Source of the DNA: a virus
Lineage: Duplodnaviria; Caudoviricetes
DNA length: 44,268 bases
IMG/VR virus record: IMGVR_UViG_3300031965_000061
Span: 1-44,268 of that record
Strand: one strand, 5' to 3'
Below are positions 1 to 44,268 of the stretch, in pieces (positions within the stretch are counted from its first letter, which is position 1; each line of letters opens with the position of its first letter). A program made the translations under genes and the position numbers. The notes beneath the pieces were generated by a model. The model had not been told where the DNA came from and did no database searches. It was given only the letters and a program-made list of their open reading frames with translations.

Positions 1-2161
1 TATCGTAGGCATCGTAGGCATCCCGAAGCCTCAGCCCACGGCGATAAATTGGTTTAGTTCCCTCCCTACTAAACCCAAACTCCTCAAGCCTATGAGCAAA
101 CCATTTTGCCGAATAGCTACCAGTGCCGGCATCCTCCGACCACTGCTTGAAACTGTCATAAAGGTGCCTGGACTGCTCTCTGAAAGCAGGTCCAATGATG
201 CACATTTCGGCCACAAATTGACCCACAACGTCCTCCGATTTGCGGTATTCAGCTGTTGCCGAGGTGACTATGGGGGGGCAATTCAGTGACTCTTTTTGCC
301 ACAGTAGACATCCTTCAAGCGCCCAGTTGAGGATACCAGACAGTTCCATTTTGAGCTTTTGATCGAGATTTCCATCCTTACGATCCTCAAATGAGACACT
401 GAATGGAATGAGTCGGACACGTCTCCAGAGAGCAGGATCGTCACTCGCCCGCGGCCGGTGGTTGGTGACGAGAATCAGCTTGTGGGTCGGTTGAAATTCA
501 ATGGGGAGCTTGCCGTAAACTCCCCTGGCATTGACCCTATCCTGCCCTGTTATCTGCTTCAGGAGCGACTCATTCAGGCGCCGGCCGTGGCTAGTCTCGG
601 TGCAGACCACCAGTCGCTTGCCCATCATCTGGAGTAGCCCTGGTTGGGCCTCGTCAGCTTTTCGGGCGTACTTGCTTTCGATCAGGAAGTCCGAATCGGC
701 ATGGAAGGCGAATTTCCCCAGAAGTTCTTCTAGGATGCCAATCAGGACGCTCTTGCCGTTGCATCCCGACCCGTAGAATATCGCAAACATTTGTTCTTTT
801 GTGGCACCAGTAAGAAAATATCCTACAAGCCTGTGCAAATAATTGATAAGTTCCGAGTTGCCGTCGAATATCTCCTCGAGGAACTGATGGAACCGAGGCG
901 CTTTGGCGATGTGATCGAATCTGATTGGGCTACGCTTGGTCAAACGATGGGAGGGGCTATGAGGTGAGAGTCGGCCCGTGGTGAGGTCGAGAACGCCATT
1001 TTCGACGGGAAGGGCAAAATGATTCTGGTCGAATTGGTGGATGGACGTGGCGATGGAGGATTCGGAGCGGGCCAGCTCGAGCATGTACCGAATTCCGTTG
1101 CGGGAATTGGACCGGACAGCGTGCTTGGCGAGGGCCTCTGAGCCGTTGCCGGCGAGGCGCTCCCACCATTGCCTGGCGGTAATTTTGCCGAGTTCCTGGA
1201 CCTGCAGACCTTCCACGTCGGTCTCCCAAATACCCGTTTCGGGGGAGTAAACGTACCATGACTTCGCCTCCGGCACGAACGCAACGCGATTTACATGCTG
1301 GAGGGAAAATTCCTTGGCGTTGGTCAGATCATTCCAATGCTCTTCTTTGACAAGTTTGTTGTTTTTTTCTACAAGTCCGTTGTAAGATATTGCATTATCA
1401 ATCATCTTAGCAAGCGCCTGAGCGCGATCTGTTTCCCGCTGAAGACGCTTGTCCAAGTCTTGGTCGAGCGGCGGGATAAACCGGACGCTACACCCTGCAC
1501 TGGTGAGGGCTTTTCCGAGCTGGTGTTTCCATTTTTCGCCGTCGGCGTCTGGATCTGGCGCCAGAACGCAATCCCTGCCCGCCAACAGGCTCTGGAGGCT
1601 CTCGACGACGTGCAGGCCGGGCTTCGCCCCTGGTGTCGCTATGACTGCTTGCATGCCTGCAGAGAGGGCCGCGGCCGCGTCCGCCTCACCTTCGGTGATC
1701 AGGATTGTTTGATCGGAGGGAAACGGCCAGGGCGAGATGAAGCCGTTTTTATCCCCTTTGTTGCAGATGGCCTTCTTACCGTTCCGGAAAGGCGTGTTGT
1801 CGGATCGGCGCTTGCGCTGGCCTGTCTGTTTCCCCTGGGCACCGCGCATGGGAAAACTGACTTCCCGGTGTGCGGGGCTGGACGTGGCGCCCAGGGCGCG
1901 CAAAGCGGAGGCTTTCCATCCCCGGATGGAGGCCAGCTCATCAACCGGATCAAGATTTGAGAGGTAGGACTGTGCCGGTGCTGGTGGAGGTGCGGGCTTC
2001 CTGCCGATCGATCGGGCAATCTGCCGGACCTCGCCAGCGGGAAGGCCGCAGCGCTCAGGGCAATTAAGCAGGTGCGCCTCGATTTCCTCGGGGCTCATTC
2101 CCTTCTTGCGGAGTGCGCCGGCGATCCTGGTGAGTTCTACGTTGCGGCCTCCGGATTCCAT
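1..2161 (-). CDS. Phage P4-family/D5-like primase-helicase (PriCT-1-like N-terminus, TOPRIM, D5_N, SF3 helicase); 3' end truncated at window edge
   Basis: Hand translation from ATG 2161: MESGGRNVELTRIAGALRKKG...; TOPRIM motifs ILITEGEAD and LAPDPDADG; Walker A FYGSGCNGKS; KRLVVCTE; LKQITGQD; LILVTNHRP; ALWRRVRLIPF. No stop before position 1, which explains its absence from the ORF track. Confidence 0.9.
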   Translation of the reverse strand, partial: MESGGRNVELTRIAGALRKKGMSPEEIEAHLLNCPERCGLPAGEVRQIARSIGRKPAPPPAPAQSYLSNLDPVDELASIRGWKASALRALGATSSPAHREVSFPMRGAQGKQTGQRKRRSDNTPFRNGKKAICNKGDKNGFISPWPFPSDQTILITEGEADAAAALSAGMQAVIATPGAKPGLHVVESLQSLLAGRDCVLAPDPDADGEKWKHQLGKALTSAGCSVRFIPPLDQDLDKRLQRETDRAQALAKMIDNAISYNGLVEKNNKLVKEEHWNDLTNAKEFSLQHVNRVAFVPEAKSWYVYSPETGIWETDVEGLQVQELGKITARQWWERLAGNGSEALAKHAVRSNSRNGIRYMLELARSESSIATSIHQFDQNHFALPVENGVLDLTTGRLSPHSPSHRLTKRSPIRFDHIAKAPRFHQFLEEIFDGNSELINYLHRLVGYFLTGATKEQMFAIFYGSGCNGKSVLIGILEELLGKFAFHADSDFLIESKYARKADEAQPGLLQMMGKRLVVCTETSHGRRLNESLLKQITGQDRVNARGVYGKLPIEFQPTHKLILVTNHRPRASDDPALWRRVRLIPFSVSFEDRKDGNLDQKLKMELSGILNWALEGCLLWQKESLNCPPIVTSATAEYRKSEDVVGQFVAEMCIIGPAFREQSRHLYDSFKQWSEDAGTGSYSAKWFAHRLEEFGFSREGTKPIYRRGLRLRDAYDAYD

Positions 2162-4208: not shown

Positions 4209-4241
4209 GGCGGAGGTGTCCTTGTCTCGCTTGTTCGTGGT

Positions 4242-4817
4242 TCAGGCTGTTGCGACGGCCGCGGTGGACTTCTTGCTGCCAACGGGTTCTCTCAGCCCCT
4301 CCGCCACGTCGTCCCACACCTTCACCCTCACACCAAACTCCACCAGCAATTCAACCAAGCGATCCTGATTCTCCCTCCCCATTGCCACCGAGGCCGCTTG
4401 CACCAGGTGGCCCATGATGGCTCGCAACTCTGCGATTCGCTGATTCACGACATGGATCGTCGTCTCGGAAATCCTGAGCCGGAATTCCTCCTCGATCTCG
4501 CGCTCGTACTCAGCGAGAGGAGGTGTGTGAGGTCTTTCGGGTTCCTGAAATTCACTGCTTGGGGTTGAGAATGTTTTTCCATGATGTTCCAACGCTAGTT
4601 TTCTGATAGTGCCGCTCGACCTTCTTTCATGGTCGCGCTGGATGTCCTCCGGTGTGAGAGGCGGATTGTTCATCGTGGCGGGGGATAGGGTTTTCACCTT
4701 CTCCGTGGAAGCCTCATCGTGGCTTCTGCGGCGCGTGTCGGGTTGCATGCCGTGGCCGCCTGGTGGCAGGTATTGGTGGCTGCCGGAGGTGATAGCTGGT
4801 GGGAGGTGGGGATTCAT
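4242..4817 (-). CDS. Hypothetical phage protein
   Basis: ATGA-coupled to the upstream gene with GGAGG RBS; helical C-terminal half. Confidence 0.6.
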   Translation of the reverse strand: MNPHLPPAITSGSHQYLPPGGHGMQPDTRRRSHDEASTEKVKTLSPATMNNPPLTPEDIQRDHERRSSGTIRKLALEHHGKTFSTPSSEFQEPERPHTPPLAEYEREIEEEFRLRISETTIHVVNQRIAELRAIMGHLVQAASVAMGRENQDRLVELLVEFGVRVKVWDDVAEGLREPVGSKKSTAAVATA

Positions 4818-5383
4818 TTCGCGTCCTCCTTCCCGGCTTCCGCCTCGCGCTCGGCGAGGGTCTGGATGCCGCCACGTCCATGCGTTTCAAAATCGGTGAC
4901 TATTATGCTCTTCGCGATCTCGCCATACACGTCGATAACTTGCGGCGCGAACGAAGCGGCTAGACTGTGCATGGCGTCGTGGGCAGAATGAGTGCAAAAG
5001 ACTGCTACGTCCGCCCGAAGCTGGCCGATCATCTCTTGCCCGGCGCCAAAAATATAGGTCACATTGGCGGGCTTATGCTCATAGAAGACCTTGACAAAGG
5101 CCGACATCCAGAACGGATTCGCCTCTATTACATAGACGTGCTTGGCAAGGTGCGAAAGGTGGAGCGCAAGCAAGCCAATCCCGCCGCCAACATCCACGAT
5201 CGTCTTGCCTTTGATACGCTTGGCAAGATGCCTAGTGACAAGGTCGCCCGTTTCATCGTCAATCACAGTTAGGACCGCCGCTGATTCGATCCCATGCCTC
5301 TGGTCATAGCGCTCCATCATCCCTATCAGTTGCGGGTCATGCACCAAGTCGTAAACCTTTTCCAGGAGTTTCCCGACGCTCAT
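4814..5383 (-). CDS. Class I SAM-dependent methyltransferase (substrate unknown)
   Basis: Motif I IVDVGGGIG followed by VYVIEANP. Confidence 0.75.
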   Translation of the reverse strand: MSVGKLLEKVYDLVHDPQLIGMMERYDQRHGIESAAVLTVIDDETGDLVTRHLAKRIKGKTIVDVGGGIGLLALHLSHLAKHVYVIEANPFWMSAFVKVFYEHKPANVTYIFGAGQEMIGQLRADVAVFCTHSAHDAMHSLAASFAPQVIDVYGEIAKSIIVTDFETHGRGGIQTLAEREAEAGKEDAK

Positions 5384-5637
5384 GCCTTCTCTCCTTTCTT
5401 TTGGGCTTCGTACTCCGCCAGCGCCGCGCGGCCAGCGGGGGTGATCGTGATTGACACCTGACGATCATCAAGCAAACGGCGAATGATGAGCAAGCCCACG
5501 GTGTCCTTGCGCCTGCGCCCCTCCATCCCCGATTCGCTGTGCAGGAAAAACGAATGATCCCAATTGTCCCACTGAAGCCACTTATCGCCGTTCCTTAGCT
5601 CCGCCAGCACCCTCGCCTGCGCGTCACTGATTTTCAT
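5380..5637 (-). CDS. Hypothetical protein, possibly winged-helix-like
   Basis: Start re-called at MKISDAQARVLAELRNG; C-terminal ITPAGRAAL. Confidence 0.6.
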   Translation of the reverse strand: MKISDAQARVLAELRNGDKWLQWDNWDHSFFLHSESGMEGRRRKDTVGLLIIRRLLDDRQVSITITPAGRAALAEYEAQKKGEKA

Positions 5638-6190
5638 CGCGGGCCTCCGTGGGGGCGGTTGCGAACATGCAGCCCTGAACTTCAGGCGGCTTTTGCTGCA
5701 CCACAATAATCGTGTCGTTGTGCGCACCGCCGTGGCAAAGCAGATGCGTTTCCAGCGTCTCATACTGCTTGCCCATGCCGGTCGAGTTCCACCCAAATGA
5801 AATGGTAATGCCGCCTGGTTTCAGGATGCGGTCAATAATTTTGCGGCAATCGCGATAGAGAACGGCGCTTTGTGTATCAGTCATACCTGTGCCACGGCCT
5901 ACCTGCTGGTAGCATTCCGCAATCTGGCGCGGCGAATAGGGAGGATCAAAAAGCACGGCATCGGCCACGATTCCGTTCGACTCCATCAGCGCAAGAAACT
6001 CCCTAGCCTCCATGTGAAAGTGCGCCGCTGTCTCCGGGTTGAGATCGTTGCGATGCGTCCCCCATTGGGAATTGCGGGCGAACGGGTCCACGATCACGGC
6101 ACAACCGTTGAGTACGCGAGCAAGCAACGCCTCGACCGGAGGCATGAGAAAGGTTTCCGAGTTTGGCATACACCAGGAGCGATGGATCAC
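5624..6190 (-). CDS. Phage adenine-specific DNA methyltransferase
   Basis: IVDPFARNS SAM motif, catalytic LFDPPY, ILKPGG, HGGAHNDTI. Confidence 0.85.
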   Translation of the reverse strand: MIHRSWCMPNSETFLMPPVEALLARVLNGCAVIVDPFARNSQWGTHRNDLNPETAAHFHMEAREFLALMESNGIVADAVLFDPPYSPRQIAECYQQVGRGTGMTDTQSAVLYRDCRKIIDRILKPGGITISFGWNSTGMGKQYETLETHLLCHGGAHNDTIIVVQQKPPEVQGCMFATAPTEARDENQ

Positions 6191-12021: not shown

Positions 12022-12225
12022 TCAGCAAACCTCCGAATCGAAATTGGGGACGGACTTGCGCTCCCCCGCCGGCACCAGCACGCGATAACGTGAGCGGCAT
12101 GAGGAGACCGTGCGCCCCCCCAACCGCTGGGAGATGACCTCCCAGTTGAGTCCCTCATCGACCATCGCGAGAAGGCGGTCATCCTCGTAGCTGCTCCAAC
12201 TGCGGTTGAGTCCTCTCGAAATCAT
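12022..12225 (-). CDS. Myb/SANT-like DNA-binding domain protein
   Basis: WSSYEDDRLL...GLNWEVISQRLGGRTVSSCRSRY matches the Myb repeat pattern. Confidence 0.8.
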   Translation of the reverse strand: MISRGLNRSWSSYEDDRLLAMVDEGLNWEVISQRLGGRTVSSCRSRYRVLVPAGERKSVPNFDSEVC

Positions 12226-12319
12226 GGTGGCGGCCTTCTGGGGAGAGTTGCCGGTTCCGGGGCTTCCCCTGCACCGGCGGGCAGGGCAGGGTGGATGGTT
12301 CCGAGCGAAATCGCTCTGG

Positions 12320-12670
12320 TTAGCGAGCGCCCGGTACGCTGTCGGATTGACTGTCGGCGAGTCCCTCGGCGGACCAGATCGCCTCGACCTGGGCGCGGAG
12401 GACAGCGTCCTTGGCCATCAGCCGTTGGAGAGCGCCGATGATGCGCCCCAGCGTGTGCAGGTACGGATTCCCCTCGCGAGAGATCGCCCGACGGATGGTC
12501 GCCAAGCTGACGGAGTGTTTAGGCTGCTCCGCCGTCTCCTCGGCGATCCGATGGTCCAGCCCGCGGACCCGAAGGCAGGCGGCTATGACACGCTCCAGAT
12601 CCCGGTTGATGGGCGATTCCGGGTTGACATCGTTCCCCCCGAAATCGGAAGAAGTTGAGTTTTTTGTCAA
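12320..12670 (-). CDS. Cro/CI-type HTH transcriptional regulator (start uncertain)
   Basis: VSLATIRRAISREGNPYLHTLGRI; first gene of the leftward arm. Confidence 0.6.
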   Translation of the reverse strand: MTKNSTSSDFGGNDVNPESPINRDLERVIAACLRVRGLDHRIAEETAEQPKHSVSLATIRRAISREGNPYLHTLGRIIGALQRLMAKDAVLRAQVEAIWSAEGLADSQSDSVPGAR

Positions 12671-12817
12671 ATGTGCATTATCTACACTGCTCACTTTGCA
12701 TCCCGCCCTTGCTGGATTCTCGCCTGATTTCCACAGGCGATGATCAGATTCCCTACACGGGGCCTTTTCACCGGCGCAAGAAAAAAGTGACAGCTCTGAG
12801 CAAAAAAGAAACAGGCT

Positions 12818-12859
12818 TGTGTAAGCCCTGTGAAAAGCCTGTGGATAACCTGTGTAGAA
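12818..12859. promoter_or_regulatory. Array of four DnaA-box-like 9-mers at 11-bp spacing, one perfect
   Basis: TGTGTAAGC 12818, TGTGAAAAG 12829, TGTGGATAA 12840 (reverse complement TTATCCACA), TGTGTAGAA 12851. Confidence 0.6.
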
Positions 12860-12993
12860 TTCGCATACACGCGACAGTGGCAAAGTGCGCCATGCCAACA
12901 CTTTGTGCCTTGCTTTTTCTCCTCGCTTGCGGTGCCAGAATGTTGCCGGTGAAGGCGATCGGCGCCATGCTTTTCGATCCGGAGAAAGAGCCT

Positions 12994-13311
12994 ATGACAC
13001 GCGAAAGTGGACCTTCCACCGCCCTGGTGCTCGCCGCCGTCGAGCATGTGCTCATCTCGCGGCGGGCCTCCCTATGGTCGCTTCAGGTCCAGTTTCGCCT
13101 CGACCTCGGCACGGCCGGCCGGGTGATGGACAGGCTCGAGTACCTCGGCATCATCGGGCCGTTCCTGCGATCCGATGCGCGCCAGGTGCTTGTACCCGAG
13201 GCGGACGCACTGGAGATCCTACTGCAGATTGGTCGCTGGCGGGCGGCACGGGAAAAAAATGCGACGGCACACGCCAATTTGGATATTTTCACGATTCGGG
13301 CTAGTTTGTAA
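12994..13311 (+). CDS. Stand-alone FtsK gamma (winged-helix) domain protein
   Basis: AVEHVLISRRASLWSLQVQFRLDLGTAGRVMDRLEYLGIIGP...ARQVLV aligns by eye with the FtsK-gamma pattern; GGAG RBS. Confidence 0.8.
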   Translation: MTRESGPSTALVLAAVEHVLISRRASLWSLQVQFRLDLGTAGRVMDRLEYLGIIGPFLRSDARQVLVPEADALEILLQIGRWRAAREKNATAHANLDIFTIRASL

Positions 13312-13411
13312 CTCCAACAATATCAATGATCCATGATACACATGACCAGCTGGCCAGGCACGCTATTCCCACAGCACCTGCCAAGTCCAGTAGTATCAAT
13401 GCTGTACCATA

Positions 13412-13440
13412 TTTGCCTCAGGCTAATCTCAAGGTATAAT
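13412..13440 (+). promoter_or_regulatory. Sigma70-like promoter
   Basis: TTTGCC or TTGCCT -35 and perfect TATAAT -10 with 16-17 bp spacer. Confidence 0.55.
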
Positions 13441-13506
13441 CAGTCGCCTGGCGTCGAGATCGGCCAACCTAGGGCATCCTACGCGGTTTTTTAGGAGGCG
13501 CCAGAG

Positions 13507-13521
13507 TCCGAATTATTCGGA
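13507..13521. promoter_or_regulatory. Perfect palindrome, possible operator
   Basis: TCCGAAT-T-ATTCGGA between two predicted promoters. Confidence 0.4.
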
Positions 13522-13583
13522 ATCCTAAGCAAAGGAGCTGGCGGGCTATGACAAAAGAAATTGGCGCCAGCCGTCGATTTCTC

Positions 13584-13611
13584 TTGCATCCCGGCGGGGG
13601 TGTGGTAGGCT
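13584..13611 (+). promoter_or_regulatory. Sigma70-like promoter with extended -10
   Basis: TTGCAT-N16-TAGGCT with TG immediately upstream of the -10. Confidence 0.45.
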
Positions 13612-13661
13612 GTAACCAGATTCGAGGGCATGGCCCTCAGACCCAAATAGGAGACAGACCG

Positions 13662-14093
13662 ATGACCTACACCGCTGCCGATGCCGTGGAAATCGCCGAG
13701 ACCAGCGGAGTGTTCGATCCCGATGTTGATTGTGCCCGCCTAAGCCGCGCCCCGGCGCAACCCCTGACGGAAAGGAGCAGAGCAATGGCTACCAAAACCG
13801 CAGCAACCGAGCCTGGCATTCGCGCAATTGTATGCCCGCGCGGATTTGCAAACGAGTACAGCGAGTACCTGCTGCGCATCAGCGATGATGCACACATGGC
13901 GCAGCTCCAGAGCTGGCGCGAGCGCGATGCAAGCGATCCGGATTTTACTCTGCGCGAGGAGGCGATCAACCGCTCGCTAGCCCGCGACAATCAGGATGCC
14001 ATGATAGAGCAGGCTTGCCACTGGCAGGAGTTTGAGAATGCTGATGATATGGCCGCGATGGCCGCCAATGCGCGCAAGCATCTCCCCGCCTGA
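13662..14093 (+). CDS. Hypothetical early protein; second in-frame start at 13785
   Basis: ATG 13662 with AGGAG RBS and in-frame ATG 13785 with AAGGAG RBS. Confidence 0.6.
   Translation: MTYTAADAVEIAETSGVFDPDVDCARLSRAPAQPLTERSRAMATKTAATEPGIRAIVCPRGFANEYSEYLLRISDDAHMAQLQSWRERDASDPDFTLREEAINRSLARDNQDAMIEQACHWQEFENADDMAAMAANARKHLPA
13753..13780 (+). repeat. Copy 1 of conserved pre-gene motif
   Basis: CGGCGCAACCCCTGACGGAAAGGAGCAG. Confidence 0.75.
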
Positions 14094-14154
14094 CGCATCG
14101 CCTCGTGGGGCGGGTTGGCGCTCGCCCCTCGCACGATGGGCCAGACTGATAACC

Positions 14155-14184
14155 GCGCTCGGCGCAACCACTGACCGGAAACGA
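14155..14184 (+). repeat. Copy 2 of conserved pre-gene motif
   Basis: GCGCTCGGCGCAACCACTGACCGGAAACGA. Confidence 0.85.
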
Positions 14185-14192
14185 GCAGACCG

Positions 14193-14846
14193 ATGAACGC
14201 ATATACCGAAACGCACCCCCGGCGCTACACCGTGGACGAGATCATAGCGGCCAAGCCATGCGGCAAGTACACCCCATCCCGCGTTGGCGAGATCGTGGGC
14301 GACGGGCTGACCGCCCGAGAGATCGCCGCGCTGGACAACCTGCCCGACGCGGACCGCCTGTGGTGCTTGATCCATGTGTGTATGGACGACCGCCAGCGGC
14401 GGTATTTTGCCTGCGACTGCGCAGAGCGGGCGCTAGCGCTACTGGACAATCCCGACCCGCGCAGCGTGGAGGCGGTTGCTGTGACACGGCGCTTTGCTGA
14501 CGGGCTGGCGACTGATGAGGAGTTGAACGCCGCACGGGCCGCCGCACATGCCGCCGTACGGGACGCCGCACGGGACGCCGCACGGGACGCCGCACGGGAC
14601 GCCGCATGGGTCGCCGCACGGGCCGCCGCACGGGCCGCCGCACGGGCCGCCGCACGGGCCGCCGCACGGGACGCCGCACGGGACGCCGCATGGGTCGCCG
14701 CATGGGACGCCGCACGGGACGCCGCATGGGACGCCGTACGGGACGCCGCACAGGACGCCGCATGGGACGCCGCGAGAGAGTGGCAACTCGGCCGCGCCGC
14801 CGAGATCATCGAGACCGCCGAGGCCGGGAAGGAGGACGCGAAATGA
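14193..14846 (+). CDS. Imm5-like protein with AA(R/W)(D/A) tetrapeptide repeats
   Basis: FACDCAERAL...DPRSVEAVAVTRRFADG...EELNAARAAA followed by about 20 repeats. Confidence 0.75.
   Translation: MNAYTETHPRRYTVDEIIAAKPCGKYTPSRVGEIVGDGLTAREIAALDNLPDADRLWCLIHVCMDDRQRRYFACDCAERALALLDNPDPRSVEAVAVTRRFADGLATDEELNAARAAAHAAVRDAARDAARDAARDAAWVAARAAARAAARAAARAAARDAARDAAWVAAWDAARDAAWDAVRDAAQDAAWDAAREWQLGRAAEIIETAEAGKEDAK
14529..14768 (+). repeat. 12-bp tandem repeat, about 20 copies (consensus GCCGCACGGGAC)
   Basis: Seen directly in the sequence. Confidence 0.95.
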
Positions 14847-15148
14847 GCGAGCAACAATACGCCAATCTACATCCCATAATTGCGGCAATGGTCGCAGGCA
14901 AGACGGTCAGAGATCGCGCGGAAGTTTTCCCGCGCCGCCTGCCGAAACCAGGCGCGACCGTGACAAGCTATGCCACGGTTCGCGTGCAGCTGAAAGATCG
15001 CCCTGGTGCGCGTGTGCGCGAGGTTTTTACATTTGTGACTCTGTCAAATCTTTGGGTGGTTTTGCCTGGCGGAAGGGTCGAAGCGCGAGTGGACCCGCGC
15101 ACACCGGAGGGCCGCGAAGTACTCGATAGGTACAGGATTGTGGACTGA
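14843..15148 (+). CDS. Hypothetical protein
   Basis: ATGA-coupled start MSEQQYANL with GGAGG RBS. Confidence 0.65.
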   Translation: MSEQQYANLHPIIAAMVAGKTVRDRAEVFPRRLPKPGATVTSYATVRVQLKDRPGARVREVFTFVTLSNLWVVLPGGRVEARVDPRTPEGREVLDRYRIVD

Positions 15149-15150
15149 CT

Positions 15151-15207
15151 GCGCTCGGCGCAACCCCTGACCGGAAACGACGGAAACGACAGAAACGACA
15201 GAAACGA
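15151..15207 (+). repeat. Copy 3 of pre-gene motif with its 3' end amplified as a 9-bp tandem repeat x4
   Basis: GCGCTCGGCGCAACCCCTGACCGGAAACGA, with C(G/A)GAAACGA x4 at 15172-15207. Confidence 0.85.
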
Positions 15208-15208
15208 C

Positions 15209-15412
15209 ATGCCCACTCCCATGATCCCACTCTCTCAGCTCGCCCGCCAATCCGGCGTCTCACTCCGCTCCCTGCAGCGCCGATGCGCACGAGGGCAGAT
15301 CCCGAATGCTATCAAGCAGGGGCGGGACTGGTTTGTGCCCGCGGGCACGAAGGTCAAGCCACTAAAGCGGGGGCGGCCATCTCTTTCACAAGGACACGCC
15401 AATGCAATCTGA
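15209..15412 (+). CDS. Excisionase/MerR-like HTH DNA-binding protein with AT-hook-like tail
   Basis: LSQLARQSGVSLRSLQRRCARGQIPNAIKQGRDWFV; KRGRPS. Confidence 0.75.
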   Translation: MPTPMIPLSQLARQSGVSLRSLQRRCARGQIPNAIKQGRDWFVPAGTKVKPLKRGRPSLSQGHANAI

Positions 15413-15710
15413 ATGGAAAGAATTATGTCCATATCCAGAGGGATCATCTGAGCGGTTGGATTTTTCCCTGGCACCGCCACATCTGCAAAAGGCCGCAATC
15501 GACTATTACCGGTATCTAACTTATATCGATGGAATAGGCAGAATTACCTTCTCTGAGGCCGAATTCCTCGGCCACGGTTGGATACGATTGAATGGCATCG
15601 ATGAAGATGATCAAGAGCCACCATTCCCCCTTGCGAAATGGGGAGGATTGGGTCGAGGAATCGATGCCAGAATAGATTCGATCAAATGGATAATCGACGC
15701 AGATTCCTGA
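15402..15710 (+). CDS. Hypothetical protein (lower GC)
   Basis: Overlaps the upstream stop; converges on the late operon. Confidence 0.6.
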   Translation: MQSEWKELCPYPEGSSERLDFSLAPPHLQKAAIDYYRYLTYIDGIGRITFSEAEFLGHGWIRLNGIDEDDQEPPFPLAKWGGLGRGIDARIDSIKWIIDADS

Positions 15711-15711
15711 G

Positions 15712-18700
15712 TCATGCAATAGCCGCCGGCGGCGGCACCACCCCCAGCACCAACCGATCCACCACCGACCCAACCCGATACCGTACCTGCACGCTCACTA
15801 TCGTCAGGTCATCGAATTCAATGCGCGATCCAGAGGCGGTCCCCTGAATACCTCGCACCGTAGTCCAGAATGGTCCCGGCGTTGCTGTGCCAGCTAGGTG
15901 GTACGTGTCGGCGTCCGGATCAAAAACCTCCGTCCGGATCTGCGCCGTTGTAACCGGCAGCAATCCGTCCAGATATGCTGTCAGAGCATTCTCATTCGCC
16001 CCAAGCACAATTTCTCCAGGTGCCGGCCACAGTTGAAAATCCCGATACAGCCCCCTCCTGGCATCGGGATGATTGATCAGTGTTTGAATGGCCGGTGTGA
16101 TGTCCACCAGAGATGCCGTCCCGCTCTCCGCAGCGGAGCCGCCAATAGATAATCCCTGCCCAAAAACTTTCCAATCGTCCGCCCCAAACTCCGCCCACGT
16201 CTGCGGCCTGGGCAGGTACACTGGTGAGCTGTCCAGCCGCTTTCCCACTAGCACAAATCCCACGTTGCCGCCGACAACTGGCGACGCCGAGTTGAACACC
16301 TGAAAATGATTGCCAGACGTGCCGCCAGTGAACTGCCATTCCTCATGCCACGCAAGAACACCGTTGACGTGATGCTCGATGTACGAGTGCCTGACTAGCG
16401 GGTTGGGATCCTCGTCCGGGAAAATCCGCAGATCAAAGTATGTGAAGTTCCATTGCCAACTCTTCAGGTTCTCAAAGATAACCTCCGCCTTTGCCTCAAC
16501 GATCTCCGCACCGTCGGGGATTCTGGCCAGCAATCCGCGAATGTCGAGCGACACGCCGCGGAACTGATATGCAGCTTCAACTAGTATGTCAATTCCCTCC
16601 GTGATGTTGCCGCCCGCCACCCCGACGATCTGCTCGTAGGCACCCGCCCGGTTGACGCCTGAACCGTCCCCAATCCCACGATCCGGTCGGTGCCTCAACC
16701 GGTAAGACTCAGCGCCTTCAGCACTTTTTTCGAGGATTCCCCCGCCAGCGCAGGAAATAATCCCATCCAGGGTATCGCTGGTAAAAATCAATCCGTCGGC
16801 TTCACCCTTTGCGTCGACGATTGTGTGTGAACCAGTCTCGAAATGATGATAGGGAAATGTTCCGCCGCCAGCGATTAGTTCATCCGTTTCTGTACTCCAT
16901 TGCCCCTTCAGGCTTCCCCACCCTGCACTCGTCGCGCCGAGATACTGAAATCCTCCCGGCGGTGCAGGATACGTCACACAGGCATAATCGAGCCCAACCG
17001 GAATGATCGTCGTGTCGCCGGAAAGAGTGTCGCCAGCCGCGCCCAATTGAATCGTCGTCCAGCCCTGATCCCAACTCTCCACCACGCCGATCATCTTGTT
17101 GAGCAACCATTCCGGATGGTCATTCCTCAATGTTCTGAACGGACCAACGATTCGGATGCAAAGCGTGCCACCCGACAAGGCGGGCAGAAGAGTATCGTCC
17201 ACGAAAGATTTCTTGATCCAGAGCTTCCGTTCCTCCGGTATAAACACGTACTCACCAGAGGAAATCGTTGTCCAGTCGTGCCCCTCGCCTAGCTCGCGAG
17301 AATCCCACTGTACTGTAAAAGAATCTCTGGGATCGCCACCCGCATCGTTCCGAATCGCAAACTCGACGCCTGGCGTGGTAGGTAATGTGTCCTGTGAATC
17401 TACCACGATCAACTCATCATGCCAATTCGCGACATTCTCATTCACATTCGAGGTTGCAACACCTGAACCGACTTCAGTTTCCGTCCCCCAATTCACCTGC
17501 CCAACCGCACGCGGCGGCCTTCCCGGCGGAGTCGAATCACTAGTGGGAAGCTCATGCGCCACCTGAATCACATCGCCGCTGCTTTCCGCATAGAACGTGA
17601 ACTGCCACACGCCCCCCGTGAATGTTGACTGATAATGATCCCGTGCCGGCGTAGCACTAGATGTCATCGCCTCGCCTGTCGTCAAATTCTCGACTGACAC
17701 AATTGCCGTCGCCAGCGAGGTGACCACCCACGTCGATTCCAATTCATCGGCCACTACCTGAGTGATCCCCCACGCAAGGGAAGTCTCCGCGCCCAGGCGT
17801 GTCAACCGCCAGTCATGCACTGGCGTTGCGGCGGGCTGCTTCCATTTCACTCGATCAACAGTTGTAATTCCCAACTGCCACGGCTGGCTGGCCGTTCCGA
17901 TTACAATGGCAGGCTCGACAACCCACGACTCTCCACTGTCCTGCCGATGGCTGATCACCACATCGGTTCCCGCCCGCTGCACTCGCACCTGAAACGGATA
18001 ATCATAACTCGCCGCCGTCACGCTCACCGGCTGGATTGTTCCATTAGTGTTCGGGCGCCACCATCCGCCGCTCAGGTCTGCTTGTCCTGTCGTCACATTG
18101 CGCGCCCATTCCAAAGCCACCACGCGCGAACCTCTAGCCGGCGTTTCGCGCCACTCCACACCGCCAGAGCCGCCTTGCACATCGACGATATGATCTCCGT
18201 CCCCCAATTCACCCGACAGAGCCGAGACCAATGTATCGAATGATTCAGAGTATCCTGCACCTCCCTCCGGCGCTTCAAGCACCAGCGGCACGCCGAAGTT
18301 CGCCCCGATCGACAGCGTCTTCCCCTCCGTGGTGAATCGTTCGTAGTACGTCAGCCAGAATTTGTCGTAAGGTCCAGAGGCGATGTCTTCGCTGGCGAGC
18401 CGAACCCGCCAGAAATCAGTGTCGAAGTGGAAGCGCGGGCTAGCCCCCATGCTCCCCCAATCGGCATCATCAGGGTAAAATACAGGACCATCTGCATCGA
18501 AGATTTTTCGCTCCGCCAGCACAAGCGAACCGGCCCCCGCTTGGTAGGCGCCTCCTACGTCGCCCATCAGTGTGTCGGCCGTGTCAAACACTAATTCAGC
18601 CGTGTCGTCCGTTGGCGACAAGATGATTCCGCCAGCCACCGCCGCAGACCAAACATGCCCAGCGTCTCCTGTCGGGGTGAAATCTACATTGCTAGGCGCA

Positions 18701-19155
18701 ATGGCATAGGGTTTCGCCTCGTCGATGAACCAACCCCGTTCCACGCCAGCAACATCCTGCCAGATCATCATGCCTGGCAGCGCGCGATCCCCCGCATCCG
18801 GTCCCGCCAGCGCACGATCATTCGCGTGGCTGATTCCTCGTTCCGGTTCGGCAGTCGCGCAAACGTTCCCGCCGCCCTTCCATTCGTACTCAACCTCAAT
18901 GGTTGTGCCGACGACTTCCGGATCCGGATCAAATGTGAAGCTGGACTTCTGATTTCCACGCTCGCACTTGATCTGCTTCAGCCCGCCGCCCAGGTCCGTC
19001 ACCAAAACGATCTTCGCGGTCGTCCTCGTGTCCGACGAAGGTTCCCATGCCTTTGGCTTGCCGGTCCCTTCGAAATACAAGCTGTACTCTACCCCACCGA
19101 TGTCCGCCGGCGGATTCAGGATCGTGCCCTGCATCACGAAATCGTTCTGTGCCAT
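15712..19155 (-). CDS. Large virion/tail-tip protein of unknown function (1147 aa)
   Basis: Long G/T/S-rich ORF that looks beta-rich, at the end of the tail operon. Confidence 0.6.
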   Translation of the reverse strand: MAQNDFVMQGTILNPPADIGGVEYSLYFEGTGKPKAWEPSSDTRTTAKIVLVTDLGGGLKQIKCERGNQKSSFTFDPDPEVVGTTIEVEYEWKGGGNVCATAEPERGISHANDRALAGPDAGDRALPGMMIWQDVAGVERGWFIDEAKPYAIAPSNVDFTPTGDAGHVWSAAVAGGIILSPTDDTAELVFDTADTLMGDVGGAYQAGAGSLVLAERKIFDADGPVFYPDDADWGSMGASPRFHFDTDFWRVRLASEDIASGPYDKFWLTYYERFTTEGKTLSIGANFGVPLVLEAPEGGAGYSESFDTLVSALSGELGDGDHIVDVQGGSGGVEWRETPARGSRVVALEWARNVTTGQADLSGGWWRPNTNGTIQPVSVTAASYDYPFQVRVQRAGTDVVISHRQDSGESWVVEPAIVIGTASQPWQLGITTVDRVKWKQPAATPVHDWRLTRLGAETSLAWGITQVVADELESTWVVTSLATAIVSVENLTTGEAMTSSATPARDHYQSTFTGGVWQFTFYAESSGDVIQVAHELPTSDSTPPGRPPRAVGQVNWGTETEVGSGVATSNVNENVANWHDELIVVDSQDTLPTTPGVEFAIRNDAGGDPRDSFTVQWDSRELGEGHDWTTISSGEYVFIPEERKLWIKKSFVDDTLLPALSGGTLCIRIVGPFRTLRNDHPEWLLNKMIGVVESWDQGWTTIQLGAAGDTLSGDTTIIPVGLDYACVTYPAPPGGFQYLGATSAGWGSLKGQWSTETDELIAGGGTFPYHHFETGSHTIVDAKGEADGLIFTSDTLDGIISCAGGGILEKSAEGAESYRLRHRPDRGIGDGSGVNRAGAYEQIVGVAGGNITEGIDILVEAAYQFRGVSLDIRGLLARIPDGAEIVEAKAEVIFENLKSWQWNFTYFDLRIFPDEDPNPLVRHSYIEHHVNGVLAWHEEWQFTGGTSGNHFQVFNSASPVVGGNVGFVLVGKRLDSSPVYLPRPQTWAEFGADDWKVFGQGLSIGGSAAESGTASLVDITPAIQTLINHPDARRGLYRDFQLWPAPGEIVLGANENALTAYLDGLLPVTTAQIRTEVFDPDADTYHLAGTATPGPFWTTVRGIQGTASGSRIEFDDLTIVSVQVRYRVGSVVDRLVLGVVPPPAAIA

Positions 19156-21074
19156 CAGAGAAGTGCCGCCTTATCCCTCGCAGAATTCGCCAGTGTTGTG
19201 TTTTCCGTCGTCATGTCAAGCGTCACCCTCGTCACTTGCTGTTCCTCCCTTCTTTCCGATCTCCTGCTCCACCAGCTTCCCGAATGCCCGTAGCTGTAAA
19301 GGTGCAATCTCCCCAAAGGCATCAATCCGAATTTCTCGATTGCAGGCCTGACTCCCGGATCATTCTTGACCGTCTCCCAGCCTGACACCTTCGCTGGGAA
19401 GAATCCGTTTTCCCTCACGGTTCCAGCCTCCCAGTGATTGTCTGCATCCGTCGTGTACGGTTCCGCGGCCACCCACCCGTGCACGATCAATTGGTGATCT
19501 CCATCATCATCGGTCCATGTCACCCGCTGGCCCATTGACGGCAGGTGCATCGGGTCTCTGGTGGCGTAGAATCCCCCCGGCGTTTGAATCGCGAATGCGC
19601 CGAAGATGGACACCAGCGAAGGGTTGCCAACGCGGATGATCCGGAAGTTCGGCGTCGACGATTCGCCTGCAATTTGCTGTTCCAGAACGAGGTCCATCGA
19701 CGTAAACCACTTGCTCCACGCCGTTCCGTCCTGCGGGTTCTCGATGCCCATTCCTGCCGGTTCACCGTATCCGGGAAAGCCGAACTTGTCTCCATCCGTT
19801 TCCCAGCAGAGATTCCGGTATCTGCCTTCCTTGAATGCTGTGCACTCGACATTCATACATCGCCGCGACTGATCGCTTCTAGTACCAAGTTCTCCATGCA
19901 CATAGCTCCCTGACCAATCCTTCTGGTCGCTCCAGCAATGCCCATAGAAGGGCCGCTTCAGGATGTCTTCTGATCTTGCCAAGCACCAATATGTTACTTC
20001 GATTCGGTCAGTCGCTTCATCGGAGAGGATGTCTGTCACCAGCAAATCCGCCACGTTGTTTTCTGTGCGGATACGCTCCAAGATTTGACTATTTGACCAT
20101 CCTACACCCGCTCCCCCACCTGATGGAAAAGTCACAACCGACATTTCTGATTCACCCAGTCCCATCCCCGGATACAGGACAATCGTCGTGCCATCAGCCG
20201 AATTGCGAAACTCCCAACGCCCCTCCACCGTTAGTGTCGTCTCTCCAAATTTCAGCACCGCCGTCCGCTTCGTCCACTGGCGGTAATGCTGCGGCTGCCA
20301 GTTCGGCCAGCCAGGCGGAAAGAACCAGTACCAGTAGATGGTGCAATAGTATTTCCCATCAGCCGGAGGATACGCTCTATCAATGGGCTGCATCGCGTTC
20401 GCGACGTTCTCCCAGCACTCCACGAAGAACTCGACATCGTCAAGTTCCGTCCCCTCCCTTCCGTAATACGGCGTTGTGCTGGTGGGCGGAATCACTTTCA
20501 GGATTCGCGGCGTCAGCTTTTCAAACAGCACACTCGGCGGATTGAACTCGACCAACCCGCCAGCAGGAAGTGCGCATGCCTGCGGCAATTGCGAAAAACG
20601 AGGCTCCCCTGGGGCGGGCCAGTTCGGGTTCAGAATTGATTCACCTTGCTCAATCCTGATAGGATTCCGTCCCCTGAGTGTCAGCGTCTTCCCGCTGGCG
20701 TTTACGATCTCATACCCTACTGCCTGGGCGATGTTCGCCCCAGCCTCACCCGCATTGAATGCTGAATTTTTCAGGATGCCATTCTGGCAGAACGCCAGCG
20801 AATCCAGAGCACTCCACACACGCTGCACCGTATCGATGTTGACACGCTGCCGCTCCTGCAGCATGTCCCACCACGGGCGATGAATCGACGCGAGCTGCAC
20901 GCCGATCCACTCGCAAATACGATGCGACTCCTGCTTGTCGCAGGTCTTGCATCCATCCGCGTAATCGAGGATCTCCGGCCAACCCATCACCGGGAAATTA
21001 TGTAGGCGCTCTCCTTCGCTTGTTCGATCGGGAACGCCCTCCCTGAGTCTGCTCGCGAGTGGTGCCCATGCCAT
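19155..21074 (-). CDS. Putative virion/tail-tip protein, Cys/Trp-rich
   Basis: Coupled ORF in the tail operon; CKTC..C and C..CMNVEC..C clusters. Confidence 0.55.
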   Translation of the reverse strand: MAWAPLASRLREGVPDRTSEGERLHNFPVMGWPEILDYADGCKTCDKQESHRICEWIGVQLASIHRPWWDMLQERQRVNIDTVQRVWSALDSLAFCQNGILKNSAFNAGEAGANIAQAVGYEIVNASGKTLTLRGRNPIRIEQGESILNPNWPAPGEPRFSQLPQACALPAGGLVEFNPPSVLFEKLTPRILKVIPPTSTTPYYGREGTELDDVEFFVECWENVANAMQPIDRAYPPADGKYYCTIYWYWFFPPGWPNWQPQHYRQWTKRTAVLKFGETTLTVEGRWEFRNSADGTTIVLYPGMGLGESEMSVVTFPSGGGAGVGWSNSQILERIRTENNVADLLVTDILSDEATDRIEVTYWCLARSEDILKRPFYGHCWSDQKDWSGSYVHGELGTRSDQSRRCMNVECTAFKEGRYRNLCWETDGDKFGFPGYGEPAGMGIENPQDGTAWSKWFTSMDLVLEQQIAGESSTPNFRIIRVGNPSLVSIFGAFAIQTPGGFYATRDPMHLPSMGQRVTWTDDDGDHQLIVHGWVAAEPYTTDADNHWEAGTVRENGFFPAKVSGWETVKNDPGVRPAIEKFGLMPLGRLHLYSYGHSGSWWSRRSERREEQQVTRVTLDMTTENTTLANSARDKAALL

Positions 21075-21077
21075 TTC

Positions 21078-23405
21078 CTAGCCCGCCACGAAACCGAAAA
21101 GTTGGGTGGCGATCGCGAACTCCGAAACAGTACTCGTGCCGCCTCCCCCGCCACTGCCACCCGTCGCCCAACGCACCGGCACCTGCCCCATCGCGCGCAT
21201 CGTCTCCTCGCGAACCGCCTTCGAGATTCCGCTTCCAAGCCCCCCGGGATCTCCACCGCCCCCAGCGGCCGACATCCCACGGAACAGACCCGCCATGCTC
21301 TGGAAATCAATCTCGGAATACGCCGTCTGGATCGACGTGACGCCCCCAATATAATCGACCGCTCGCTCAGTGATAACCGTCCCGATCAGTTGCCGCTGCA
21401 CAGTGCGAGACAATCTTCTAACCATCACACCAGGCGCCGGCAGTCCGCCAATCGACATCTGACGCACACGCACCAATGCGCGCGCCCTGGAATGCCATGC
21501 CTCCGCAAGGGCCGCCACCGCACGAAGCCACGCCCGATCATCCCTTGTGATCATCCCTTGCGATTCCTGCACGCGCACCAGTGTTCCATCCTCGCGCACC
21601 CCCACGACTGTTCCCGGTGCAACCCACCACAACTCGGCATTCTCGATCTCGATCACGAGGCCCTCGCTATCCTCCCCCGGCACGCCAGTCCCCGGAATTC
21701 GCCTCATGACATCAATATGCCTGTTAGTTTCCATCTGCACCGTGGCGATCATCTTTCGCCAATTCGACACGGGGCTGGCCACCGTGGGATTGGCATTCGT
21801 GCCCGGAATGAAATCAGCAGAGGCAATCAAGTGCGCCGGCGTCGCCGTAATCCATAGCGCCGCTTCCGTGTCGTCCGGCCGGACCTGCACGCTCGCCCAG
21901 CTCGAATGCCCCGGGCGACTCCCCTCATAATATCGCTGGATGATCCGGTTTCCCTCCTCGGCAGAACCGAGAAGGAACACAAGCGGAGGCATCACCTCGT
22001 CCACCGCATCGGGTTCTGCACCCGCGCCGTAGTCAATTCCCTTGAAGAGGCCGCAATGCCTCTCAATTCGTCGCCACCGCGGCACCTTCGGCTGACTTGT
22101 ACTCGTTAGGAGGTTGCCTTCAACGTCGATTTCCGGAAGCAACTTGACAGATGGCAGTTCCACGTCGCGCGTCGCCGGAAGAACGGTCGAAAATTCCCAA
22201 TCCGTGTAGGGCTCCTGAAACGTCCGCGCGTCCAGCTCCCAATCGAAATCATCCGGGATCTTGAATCGTTGGTAGACTTGCGCGAACTCCTGGCGCGTTG
22301 TGCGGATGACATCCGACACCGCCCCCTGAGAGATCACCGATGCAGCAGAGTACCCGAGAATGTTCGTCCCCGCATCCTTGTATTCCGTTTCGCGCTGGCT
22401 GCTCCACCCCGCCTCAAGCGTGTCGTCAACTTCGGTCAGCGAAAATGTCACTTTCAGCGGCGCGCCACGCACGATCACGAGCCCCACCTGCGGCAACCCG
22501 TCCACCTGCACCTGCGCGTCCTCGAGCAGCGAACCCGTCTCGACATCCAGATCCACCTGCCGCTCGTTCGCTTTCAGATTGAACCCCTCCGCCACGAAAG
22601 AAATATCGCTCGTGCTGAACAACCTGACGCGCACCGTGCTTCCCACGCCGTACCACTCACACCGAACGCCCATGCCTCGCCGGCGATCGATCAGCGCCTG
22701 CACAACCTGCCATGCACTTTTGCCTTGGGTGTCCAGCACTGGATGCCAATTCGCCAACGTCTCCAGATCGCCGGTCAACTCCCATGTAAATCCGCCCGGG
22801 ATGGGCGCGCGCGCGAGAACATACTCCAGCATCTGAATTGCGTTCCACCTCTCCCCCCCGCGAACGAAGACGTAGCTCGAACCAACCTTACTGTCAGATC
22901 GATTTCCAACAACTACGCCTCCGCTGGAGTAGACGTTGAACCTCGGCGACATGTTGATCCGTCGCGCTGTCGCCTCATCTTCCCACCATGAGCTGGCGAG
23001 CGGCGCACGGTCCAGGTTGAATTCCGGCCCCAACGCCACCAGCACCTGCGTACCGCTGGGGGCGACATCTCGCCCCATTGGCGCGTACTCCTCAGCCCGC
23101 AGAACGCCGGCCCACTGAGTGATGGCACCGCTCCCCACTTCCGCCGTCCGGATGCGGACGCGCCAATCCTTCAGCGCGCTCGGTCTCTCGATGACAAACG
23201 CCCCGCGATCCGCCCGCTTGAGCATCCCGTAATCAAATCGGACTCGTGCGTTTGAGTACCCCGGCGCTACCGCATCGACATGGCTCAGAGGGACTAGGTA
23301 AGGAGCGATCCGCCAGGAAGTCGCCCCCGGCGGCGCGACCTCGCACCACCGCCGTGTGACAGGCTCGATTCGTCTAGTGCGCTTGCCGACTGTGATCGTG
23401 GCCAC
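21078..23405 (-). CDS. Putative tail hub/baseplate-type protein
   Basis: 775-aa ORF in the tail operon; assignment is positional. Confidence 0.5.
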   Translation of the reverse strand: MATITVGKRTRRIEPVTRRWCEVAPPGATSWRIAPYLVPLSHVDAVAPGYSNARVRFDYGMLKRADRGAFVIERPSALKDWRVRIRTAEVGSGAITQWAGVLRAEEYAPMGRDVAPSGTQVLVALGPEFNLDRAPLASSWWEDEATARRINMSPRFNVYSSGGVVVGNRSDSKVGSSYVFVRGGERWNAIQMLEYVLARAPIPGGFTWELTGDLETLANWHPVLDTQGKSAWQVVQALIDRRRGMGVRCEWYGVGSTVRVRLFSTSDISFVAEGFNLKANERQVDLDVETGSLLEDAQVQVDGLPQVGLVIVRGAPLKVTFSLTEVDDTLEAGWSSQRETEYKDAGTNILGYSAASVISQGAVSDVIRTTRQEFAQVYQRFKIPDDFDWELDARTFQEPYTDWEFSTVLPATRDVELPSVKLLPEIDVEGNLLTSTSQPKVPRWRRIERHCGLFKGIDYGAGAEPDAVDEVMPPLVFLLGSAEEGNRIIQRYYEGSRPGHSSWASVQVRPDDTEAALWITATPAHLIASADFIPGTNANPTVASPVSNWRKMIATVQMETNRHIDVMRRIPGTGVPGEDSEGLVIEIENAELWWVAPGTVVGVREDGTLVRVQESQGMITRDDRAWLRAVAALAEAWHSRARALVRVRQMSIGGLPAPGVMVRRLSRTVQRQLIGTVITERAVDYIGGVTSIQTAYSEIDFQSMAGLFRGMSAAGGGGDPGGLGSGISKAVREETMRAMGQVPVRWATGGSGGGGGTSTVSEFAIATQLFGFVAG

Positions 23406-23408
23406 ATC

Positions 23409-24194
23409 CTACTCCCTGTAAGCCGTCACGCTCGTTTCCCAAATTCTCGCGGTGCCCGCAGCCAGCTCATTGCCCGGCACGTCCACCGTCACGCTCGAAA
23501 CCGGCCCATCCGTCTCCGATGCGTCATCCTCCACGCGCCTGGCCCAGCACTCGATCAGCACCTCGCCCGTCTGGCTGGGCAATGCCGTGTCGTCGAGCAT
23601 GATCAGCGTCACCGCCAGTTTCGCCATGCCGTCCGACCAGTCCATCGCGATCGTGGTCGGTCCCTGCACGTCATCTGGCGTCGCAAACTGCGTCGAGCGC
23701 AGCACAAAATGCGTCGGCCGTTCCCCGCTGGTGGGCTCGCCCGCGAACGCCTCCACCAGCACGTTCCATCCGCTGACGCTGGCCCGCAGCTCGAGCAACG
23801 CCTCTGGCGGCACAGGGCCGGACGCCCCCGAATCGATCACGATCCTCTCACTCTCCGTGTTTTCCGAAACGACGTTGTAGCCGTTTCTCTGGCGGACAAC
23901 CACTCGCCAGTCTCCATCGGCCAGAGACACGACAATCGGAAACGAGGTGTCGGCCGCCACGAGGTCTCCCGATGGCACCGCCGGCACAGTTCCGCTCTCG
24001 GGGAAAGTCGGCTCGATGCCATCCGCGGCGTACACCTCAAACCTGCGGAGCGCATCGTTCTCGACCCCACGATTCCGGCCACGGAACTGTAACTGGTACG
24101 GCTGCACAAAGCCGCCAGCACCCCGCGCCTCCAGATGGAAGGGGTCGCGCACGTCCTGCCCATCGACGAATGTCCCCCCCACCAGCGCAATCAA
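23409..24194 (-). CDS. Putative virion protein (possible Ig/FN3-like domains)
   Basis: LADGDWRVVVRQRNGYNVVS segment is FN3-like. Confidence 0.5.
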   Translation of the reverse strand: MIALVGGTFVDGQDVRDPFHLEARGAGGFVQPYQLQFRGRNRGVENDALRRFEVYAADGIEPTFPESGTVPAVPSGDLVAADTSFPIVVSLADGDWRVVVRQRNGYNVVSENTESERIVIDSGASGPVPPEALLELRASVSGWNVLVEAFAGEPTSGERPTHFVLRSTQFATPDDVQGPTTIAMDWSDGMAKLAVTLIMLDDTALPSQTGEVLIECWARRVEDDASETDGPVSSVTVDVPGNELAAGTARIWETSVTAYRE

Positions 24195-24478
24195 TCTTCC
24201 TGCTCCTCCGTTTCACAAGATGTTTCACGGGAAACAACTTGTTCATTTTTTTTACAAGTTCCCGCCTGCCTCACTGCTTTCAGCGCTTTGCAAATCGGTT
24301 GCTCCATTGCCTCCAGCGCCTCCTCTATCAATCTGGCCGCGTGCCGCGGATTCTCGCCCGTCCCGTGCCGAGTGGGCATATTGGGTTGACTGACGCGCCA
24401 TAGGTGCAATCCATGGTAGGGCCCTGCAATCAGCAAGTCTAGCCCGTTGGCGGGGTCCTGGTACTCGAACACGATCAT
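24191..24478 (-). CDS. Hypothetical protein; 3' end contains the parS-like site
   Basis: ATGA-coupled ORF; VSRET peptide is the translation of parS. Confidence 0.5.
   Translation of the reverse strand: MIVFEYQDPANGLDLLIAGPYHGLHLWRVSQPNMPTRHGTGENPRHAARLIEEALEAMEQPICKALKAVRQAGTCKKNEQVVSRETSCETEEQED
24221..24236. promoter_or_regulatory. parS-like centromere site
   Basis: TGTTTCACGGGAAACA, 15/16 match to canonical TGTTTCACGTGAAACA; extra half site GTTTCAC at 24210. Confidence 0.75.
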
Positions 24479-44225: not shown

Positions 44226-44268
44226 AAACGATCCCTTACACCGAGCGTTTTCCCGCGATCACCCCGCC

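Follow-up and report, generated by a model that had tools for sequence, protein, structure and literature searches.

Host-type parS and DnaA-box sites and a solo FtsK-gamma gene on a partial lambda-like phage genome: likely independent acquisitions rather than one chromosome-mimicry system

Can a phage without a recognisable integrase or partition protein rely on the chromosome-maintenance machinery of its host to persist? This question is raised by a 44,268-nucleotide viral contig (the window analysed here, which is the entire IMG/VR record IMGVR_UViG_3300031965_000061), on which four kinds of host-like element are found: a parS site, the type of sequence on which ParB loads; an array of DnaA-box-like 9-mers; a stand-alone gene for the gamma domain of FtsK; and overlapping octamers resembling FtsK-orienting polar sequences (KOPS). 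The sequence-only reading of this DNA took them together as a coordinated mimicry of the host chromosome, through which the phage might integrate or live as an episome using host machinery alone, or might stall the host cell cycle with decoys. The explanation that we favour, at a rough probability of 0.55, is that the contig represents a partial lambda-like phage genome with two separate docking sites for host proteins (ParB and DnaA) plus a solo gamma protein repurposed as a regulator; the elements were likely acquired independently and likely form no integration or episome system. The principal features are the following.

24221..24236, no strand assigned: host-type parS, one mismatch to the palindromic 16-bp consensus
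24191..24478, minus strand: open reading frame (ORF) of 95 aa in the late (tail) operon, whose C-terminal tail encodes the parS; called as a protein from three sources
12818..12859, minus strand: four DnaA-box-like 9-mers with a period of 11 bp, in the divergent early control region
12994..13311, plus strand: stand-alone winged helix of the FtsK-gamma family whose helix 2-3 surface is altered (Pfam PF09397, E 1.4e-9)
12279..12291, plus strand: two overlapping KOPS octamers (at 12279 and 12284), intergenic
12320..12667, minus strand: putative gene for an XRE/Cro-like helix-turn-helix protein, oriented divergently to gamma, start uncertain (a lead only)

The parS site had been described as near-canonical, and this is borne out: none of 300 dinucleotide shuffles contains a match at one mismatch or fewer, and 2 do so at two mismatches. 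Read on the minus strand, positions 24221-24236 are letter-for-letter the chromosomal parS of Thermus thermophilus, and Thermus ParB is reported to bind an identical 16-mer probe specifically (PMC4409726). That Thermus site, parSc, likewise lies inside a gene; it differs from the site described here in its setting, as the phage contig has neither parAB genes nor an oriC context. The phage site is enclosed by an extended inverted repeat (24215-24242) and accompanied by a half-site at 24211-24217, lies 11.4 kb from the other elements and is encoded within a 95-aa ORF for which no Pfam or NCBIfam match is found. Its location in coding sequence, where the RNA of the longer inverted repeat around it folds (coding strand, z -3.6), together with the imperfection of three of the four DnaA boxes, is what might be said for regarding all motifs as coincidences of sequence. 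This reading is very improbable, given that 0/300 shuffles match either the parS or the array and that parS is enriched in IMG/VR to the extent described next.

Across IMG/VR, the exact consensus parS occurs in an estimated 5,700 stretches (approximately, as extrapolated from 2 of 64 parts of the database) versus 2 for the reversed palindrome, an enrichment of roughly 3,000-fold, and the variant carried by this phage occurs in about 420 stretches. Among 80 examined loci (of 139), 37 sites are intergenic and 43 lie inside ORFs as judged with a crude ORF caller; 45 of the 62 flanking ORFs that were scanned (of 119 listed) match PHROG families, mostly capsid, terminase, tail and polymerase. A host-type parS on phage DNA is thus common. 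A precedent is the lytic Bacillus phage phi29, which has five parS sites and is reported to use Spo0J for entry into the prespore (PMC2731898). The two cases share a host-type parS on a phage genome and, as proposed for phi29, a host ParB that moves phage DNA (PMC2731898); they differ in the number of sites, five in phi29 against a single one in the 44 kb described here, and in the host, which sporulates in the case of phi29 and likely does not in the case of this phage, a lambda-like one with a cos-like end. In the literature searched, the role of such sites has been studied only in phi29, and that literature, which covers few subscription journals, yielded no phage-wide survey of parS or DnaA arrays. 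Many phage contigs of 8-18 kb carry parS, often more than once (L089, L096, L105, L116, L124, L128, L134, L153, L159 and L161), and show matches to protein-primed-type polymerases or phi29-like terminases; these are possibly gut relatives that use the phi29 strategy.

The DnaA array had also been noted from the sequence, and its four phased 9-mers stand up to the same kind of test. The boxes at 12818, 12829, 12840 and 12851 have 4, 3, 0 and 2 mismatches to the strict box, respectively, a summed mismatch of 9 compared with a minimum of 11 in 300 shuffles. The single perfect box is 12840-12848; the other three have, by inspection, 2, 1 and 1 mismatches to a relaxed consensus. The array is flanked by the putative Cro-like gene (minus strand) and the gamma gene, and its boxes are clustered and helically phased, as in an oriC. 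An oriC role is nonetheless unlikely because no DnaA-trio array is present near the boxes (the longest trio-like run is 1), no AT-rich unwinding block adjoins them (two A-tracts only; AT content per 50-bp window 46-64%) and a primase-helicase is encoded by the phage itself.

Arrays of this type are also widespread among phages. A tight pattern of the array geometry is found in about 260 IMG/VR stretches; 80 of 120 were examined, many of them related contigs, and 52 of these arrays lie outside ORFs. Of the 92 flanking ORFs scanned (of 129), 28 match phage families, for example terminase, tail, primase and RusA, in a PHROG-only scan that would not reliably reveal a host dnaA or dnaN. A similar array matches 392 INPHARED phage records (E up to 1, many over 20-25 bases only), including T5-like phages and a Przondovirus. 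The injection-stop region of T5 is described as containing eight DnaA boxes, predicted in silico, located away from the origins of T5 and argued not to be an origin themselves (bioRxiv 10.1101/866236). Common to T5 and the phage described here are phased boxes, some perfect and some imperfect, that share one orientation, lie in non-coding DNA and belong to a phage equipped with replication genes of its own (bioRxiv 10.1101/866236). The T5 boxes, in contrast, are arranged in pairs, mostly 3 bp apart, in the terminal repeat, where a pattern with a 2-bp spacer misses them; the four boxes here are 2 bp apart and lie mid-genome between divergent early genes.

Because parS and the array are host-type sites beyond chance, host ParB and host DnaA, respectively, likely bind them, a prediction that, like all others on binding or function made here, is deduced from sequence. 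In the favoured explanation, host DnaA would, once the DNA is injected, occupy the phased boxes that separate the divergent pair of early genes and so tie early transcription to the replication state of the host, while copying of the genome would also soak up some DnaA. Host ParB would load at the single parS, and the phage DNA might be positioned or carried into a daughter cell, as suggested for phi29. Replication would proceed with the phage's own primase-helicase, and the solo gamma protein would act as a DNA-binding regulator.

An alternative use of the same sites is that of a decoy or sink, in which DnaA and ParB are titrated by amplified copies of the phage genome and FtsK is hampered by gamma, so that the cell cycle of the host stalls as the phage grows lytically. 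In favour of this, lytic phages commonly carry arrays, some phages hold multiple copies (up to six parS in G019, arrays at four places in G041) and the gamma gene here lies in the early region. Set against this, a single parS and a single perfect box in 44 kb make a small sink, the altered part of gamma is the very surface that would compete for KOPS or XerD, and the placement of the array, exactly between divergent genes, is suited to regulation. We consider the decoy idea, which is not specific to this phage, unlikely.

The third element is a solo FtsK-gamma gene as originally read, scoring 38 bits against the curated PF09397 cut-off of 30.6. The ORF is stand-alone, 105 aa long (123 aa from an upstream start), and aligns with solved gamma domains (PDB 2VE8, 2J5P and 5DCF); the nearest atlas cluster is a family of 104-aa gamma proteins. 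It belongs to the same winged-helix family as known FtsK gamma domains and differs from them in having no motor and in its XerD/KOPS surface. FtsK residues 1289-1297 are reported to contact XerD and KOPS, with R1289 being the most important for XerD (PMC5052618). In the phage protein, this stretch reads VQFRLDLGT in place of RQFRIGYNR, with 3/9 positions identical and 6/9 changed: R1289 is replaced by V (arginine in 139/148 aligned homologues, many of which are probably host FtsK ends), G1294 by D (glycine in 132/148) and R1297 by T (arginine in 111/148), and the equivalent of N1296 is also lost. An isolated gamma domain can reportedly activate XerCD at dif (PMC3130261); the phage protein, with the sequence that it has, is likely unable to do so.

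What the gamma protein does instead may be suggested by where its gene lies. We take its position to be the one usually occupied by the repressor gene in lambdoid phages, and the protein is likely a repurposed DNA-binding regulator. If shown, a gamma domain that has exchanged its KOPS/XerD surface and is encoded where a repressor might be expected would put the fold to a new use. Solo or fused phage gamma genes have been noted before, the solo ones with no role assigned (PMC8190038). Each real element of the window, namely parS, the DnaA boxes and the solo gamma gene, has a phage precedent (in phi29, in T5 and in these earlier gamma genes, respectively). Among the top gamma homologues (P0002-P0024), many have at least two tandem gamma domains and no motor-sized body.

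The remaining partners that dimer resolution would need fare less well. Overlapping KOPS-like octamers do exist at 12279, as had been pointed out, yet the genome-wide count is at chance: 9 octamers compared with 10.0 expected, 3 on the plus and 6 on the minus strand, neither enriched nor polarised. An overlapping doublet arises in 3/100 shuffles (p ~0.03) for a pattern that was chosen after it had been seen, and the doublet is probably due to chance. The region was also considered as an RNA structure and folds no better than shuffles. No dif-like site is found on the contig (0 matches at three or fewer mismatches to an E. coli-type motif, a search that leaves room for a dif of divergent sequence or for one beyond the contig). 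The dimer-resolution arm of the proposed system fails because KOPS are at chance, no dif-like site is seen and gamma lacks the XerD/KOPS residues; one coordinated four-part mimicry is not supported.

It is at this point that an episome maintained by host machinery, or an integrase-free lysogen, can be weighed. In that scenario, the array is the origin, parS partitions the DNA, and gamma together with KOPS resolves dimers or drives XerCD-dependent integration. The reported activity of isolated gamma at dif speaks for it, as do the lambdoid-looking control region, a Cox/Xis-like gene that has no integrase beside it, and the scarcity of integrase and Par genes in other records with parS or arrays (counts below). 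It is nevertheless very unlikely: there is no dif-like site and the equivalents of R1289 and N1296 are lost; KOPS are at chance and unpolarised; the array has no trio run or AT-rich block, and the phage brings its own primase-helicase; in two samples, contigs end at the cos-like terminus with none running past it, as expected for packaged linear DNA; and the same sites are present in lytic phages. Integrative mobile elements exploiting Xer (IMEX) and phage-plasmids such as N15 and P1 are alike in the proposed persistence without an integrase of their own; in contrast to them, no dif-like site, ParA, ParB or plasmid Rep is recognised on this contig. Integration by host factors alone and episomal life, both suggested earlier, are thus not supported: beside the failed dimer-resolution arm, the origin arm is weak.

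If the elements formed a system, they might be expected together elsewhere. Co-occurrence was assessed in the longest records of each type, 25 with parS (24 used) and 25 with arrays, and distant terminase relatives served as controls (37 of 38 used). Tandem boxes are present in 2/24 parS records and 2/37 controls (p 0.64), parS is present in 1/25 array records and 0/37 controls (p 0.40), and FtsK-gamma in 0/49 parS or array records. The description of parS and the array as host-type signals stands as far as chance is concerned; their association with each other does not exceed the control, and no gamma accompanies them. The search through relatives of the phage's Sak4 recombination module gives a similar result. 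This module has 80 viral and 50 genome loci at up to 53% identity, of which 123 were examined with flanks of up to 10 kb (80 viral and 43 genome loci; 7 weak matches were dropped). None of the 123 has a credible gamma gene or a tandem DnaA pair; the lone gamma match is short, with E 1e-4, and lies on the Sak4 frame itself of L540. A parS with two or fewer mismatches is found in 2/123, one being identical to that of this phage. This identical site, in L433, lies 4 bp downstream of a tyrosine integrase stop codon; by eye, it lies between that stop and a stretch resembling a tRNA 3' fragment (L433:4460-4503), possibly an attP. Two near-complete records deserve description in their own right: G023 has an array at 17944-18007 with six phased boxes, a parS at 23145 and no integrase or Par match, and G044 has both an array and a parS (21899, 22652) together with a partial serine-recombinase match.

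The claim that no integrase, ParA or ParB is recognisable is true of the contig, on which six-frame searches for tyrosine and serine recombinases, ParA and ParB (PF00589, PF00239, PF07508, PF02195 and PF13614) all return 0 matches. No integrase follows the Cox/Xis-like gene at 15209, nor is one found at the junction of early and tail genes. The absence is not extendable to the whole phage because the left part of the genome is missing: the record is classed as linear with a CheckV completeness of 55%, a figure that is weak for so divergent a phage, and the primase gene at its left end is truncated. Other site-bearing phages are likewise poor in integrase and Par genes. A tyrosine integrase is found in 2/49 parS or array records compared with 13/37 distant terminase relatives (p 0.0003), in a control that is biased in that 19/37 are proviruses; in the 49 records, a serine recombinase is found in 2/49, ParA in 0/49 and ParB-N in 4/49. 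To be without integrase and Par genes is the norm among phages with parS or arrays. Such integrase poverty fits lytic phages and by itself is no pointer to an episome.

The incomplete genome leaves a tentative possibility that the phage is temperate in the ordinary way, with an integrase gene in the part not assembled and the host-type sites as accessories. The 55% completeness, the left end within the primase gene and the Cox/Xis-like gene fit this, and so do the tyrosine integrases in 13/37 distant terminase relatives, the identical parS just past the integrase gene of L433 and Gordonia phage Bowser, which has a gamma-containing gene plus two integrases. Against it can be set the lack of an integrase at the early/tail gene junction, the weakness of the CheckV estimate and the length of the longest other assembly seen, only 44,529 bp. 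That second assembly of the same phage carries the genes from 2236 to 41803. The temperate alternative concerns lifestyle and is compatible with the favoured explanation of docking sites plus a repurposed gamma regulator.

Several observations weigh against that favoured explanation. No close relative is found via gamma or capsid (for the capsid, one locus at 33%), and with the large terminase at most 38% and Sak4 at most 50% identical, conservation of the arrangement cannot be assessed. Three records carry both sites (G009, G023 and G044), so that in such small samples a weak linkage is possible. The KOPS doublet is intergenic, lies 0.7 kb from the gamma gene and has the p of ~0.03 given above. 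The regulator role of gamma comes from gene position only, and its Cro-like partner is a lead only: the ORF falls in the HTH_3 cluster of the atlas at 0.92 with a low shared-feature count, has no Pfam match, and its predicted fold is of low confidence (pLDDT, a predicted local accuracy score, of 60) and matches no known fold. Finally, integrase-poor records with such sites also fit a non-integrating, persistent life. This last point leads to a bolder variant, which we regard as quite unlikely: an integrase-free carrier state in which gamma would be the immunity repressor, DnaA at the phased boxes would report the replication state of the host and ParB would partition the unintegrated genome. 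The phage would then exemplify a large class, overlooked so far and comprising thousands of IMG/VR records, whose members borrow host chromosome-cycle proteins via cis sites alone, without integrase and Par genes. For this genome alone, the result is modest, as the four proposed parts do not add up to one system; of wider interest is the strong enrichment of parS in viral contigs, with long parS or array records mostly free of integrase and Par genes.

The lambda-like assignment is based on gene content and on the right end of the contig. In Pfam and PHROG scans of 60 ORFs, the right side carries genes for a lambda-type terminase, a portal, tail proteins and a protease-capsid fusion, and the left side genes for an exonuclease, Sak4, a helicase, methyltransferases and a D5-like primase. 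When 30 ORFs were compared with NCBIfam, none scored above the cut-off. The contig ends and further genes with an assignment are listed below.

2..2161, minus strand: D5-like primase-helicase, truncated by the left contig end (Pfam, PHROG)
44244..44268, minus strand: lambda-like cos left end, likely a physical genome end (comparison with lambda, contig stops)
12022..12225, minus strand: Myb-like DNA-binding protein, first gene of the recombination/replication operon (Pfam PF00249, E 9e-10)
13413..13440, plus strand: sigma-70-like promoter (10 of 12) before a small rightward early operon (motif match)
15209..15412, plus strand: Cox/excisionase-like helix-turn-helix protein (phrog_575, E 2.8e-5)

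At the right end, 17/25 first bases equal those of the lambda left end, and the end lies upstream of the small terminase gene, 43 bp from its start. A gpA-type terminase, a lambda portal and a cos end beside terS are thus all present, and the cos end is kept although the terminase is only ~25% identical to those of cultured phages. Contigs of runs X1, X2 and X4, which represent two samples (X1 may be the source), end exactly at 44268. In the metagenome runs examined, no contig extends beyond 44268 or beyond position 1, where for the left end absent cover proves nothing. The right end is likely the physical cos end of packaged DNA because contigs stop exactly at 44268 and none passes it.

The runs containing this phage's DNA are soil and sediment metagenomes. 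Among 43 strong Sak4 relatives in named genomes, 18 have planctomycete titles and 10/43 belong to Verrucomicrobia, Lentisphaerae or Kiritimatiellae; at identities of up to ~50%, these give only a hint of the host phylum. In the phylum of a planctomycete Sak4 relative, which tentatively may be that of the host, parS within one mismatch is found in 61/151 genomes (4 for the reversed control), and the exact variant of this phage in one listed genome.

In the early control region, an 11-bp exact repeat occurs at 12583-12593 and 12992-13002, the second copy lying over the FtsK-gamma start codon, with weaker copies at 12862 and 13546, in both intergenic regions. A role as operator was considered; the 11-mer is not enriched genome-wide (10 compared with 10.0 at two mismatches) and is left as a lead. 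The Cox/Xis-like gene is directly preceded by a 9-bp tandem repeat (15174-15209) and followed by a gene at 15402-15710 that adjoins the tail genes. The end of the tail operon (15712-23405) holds three large ORFs (1147, 639 and 775 aa) with no Pfam, PHROG or NCBIfam match. The Myb-like domain at 12022-12225 is stand-alone. An ORF at 14193-14846 carries an Ala/Arg/Asp repeat tract at which assemblies break (14587-14707), and at least three methyltransferase-like genes (2236, 4814 and 5624; region 2236-6190) surround the helicase gene.

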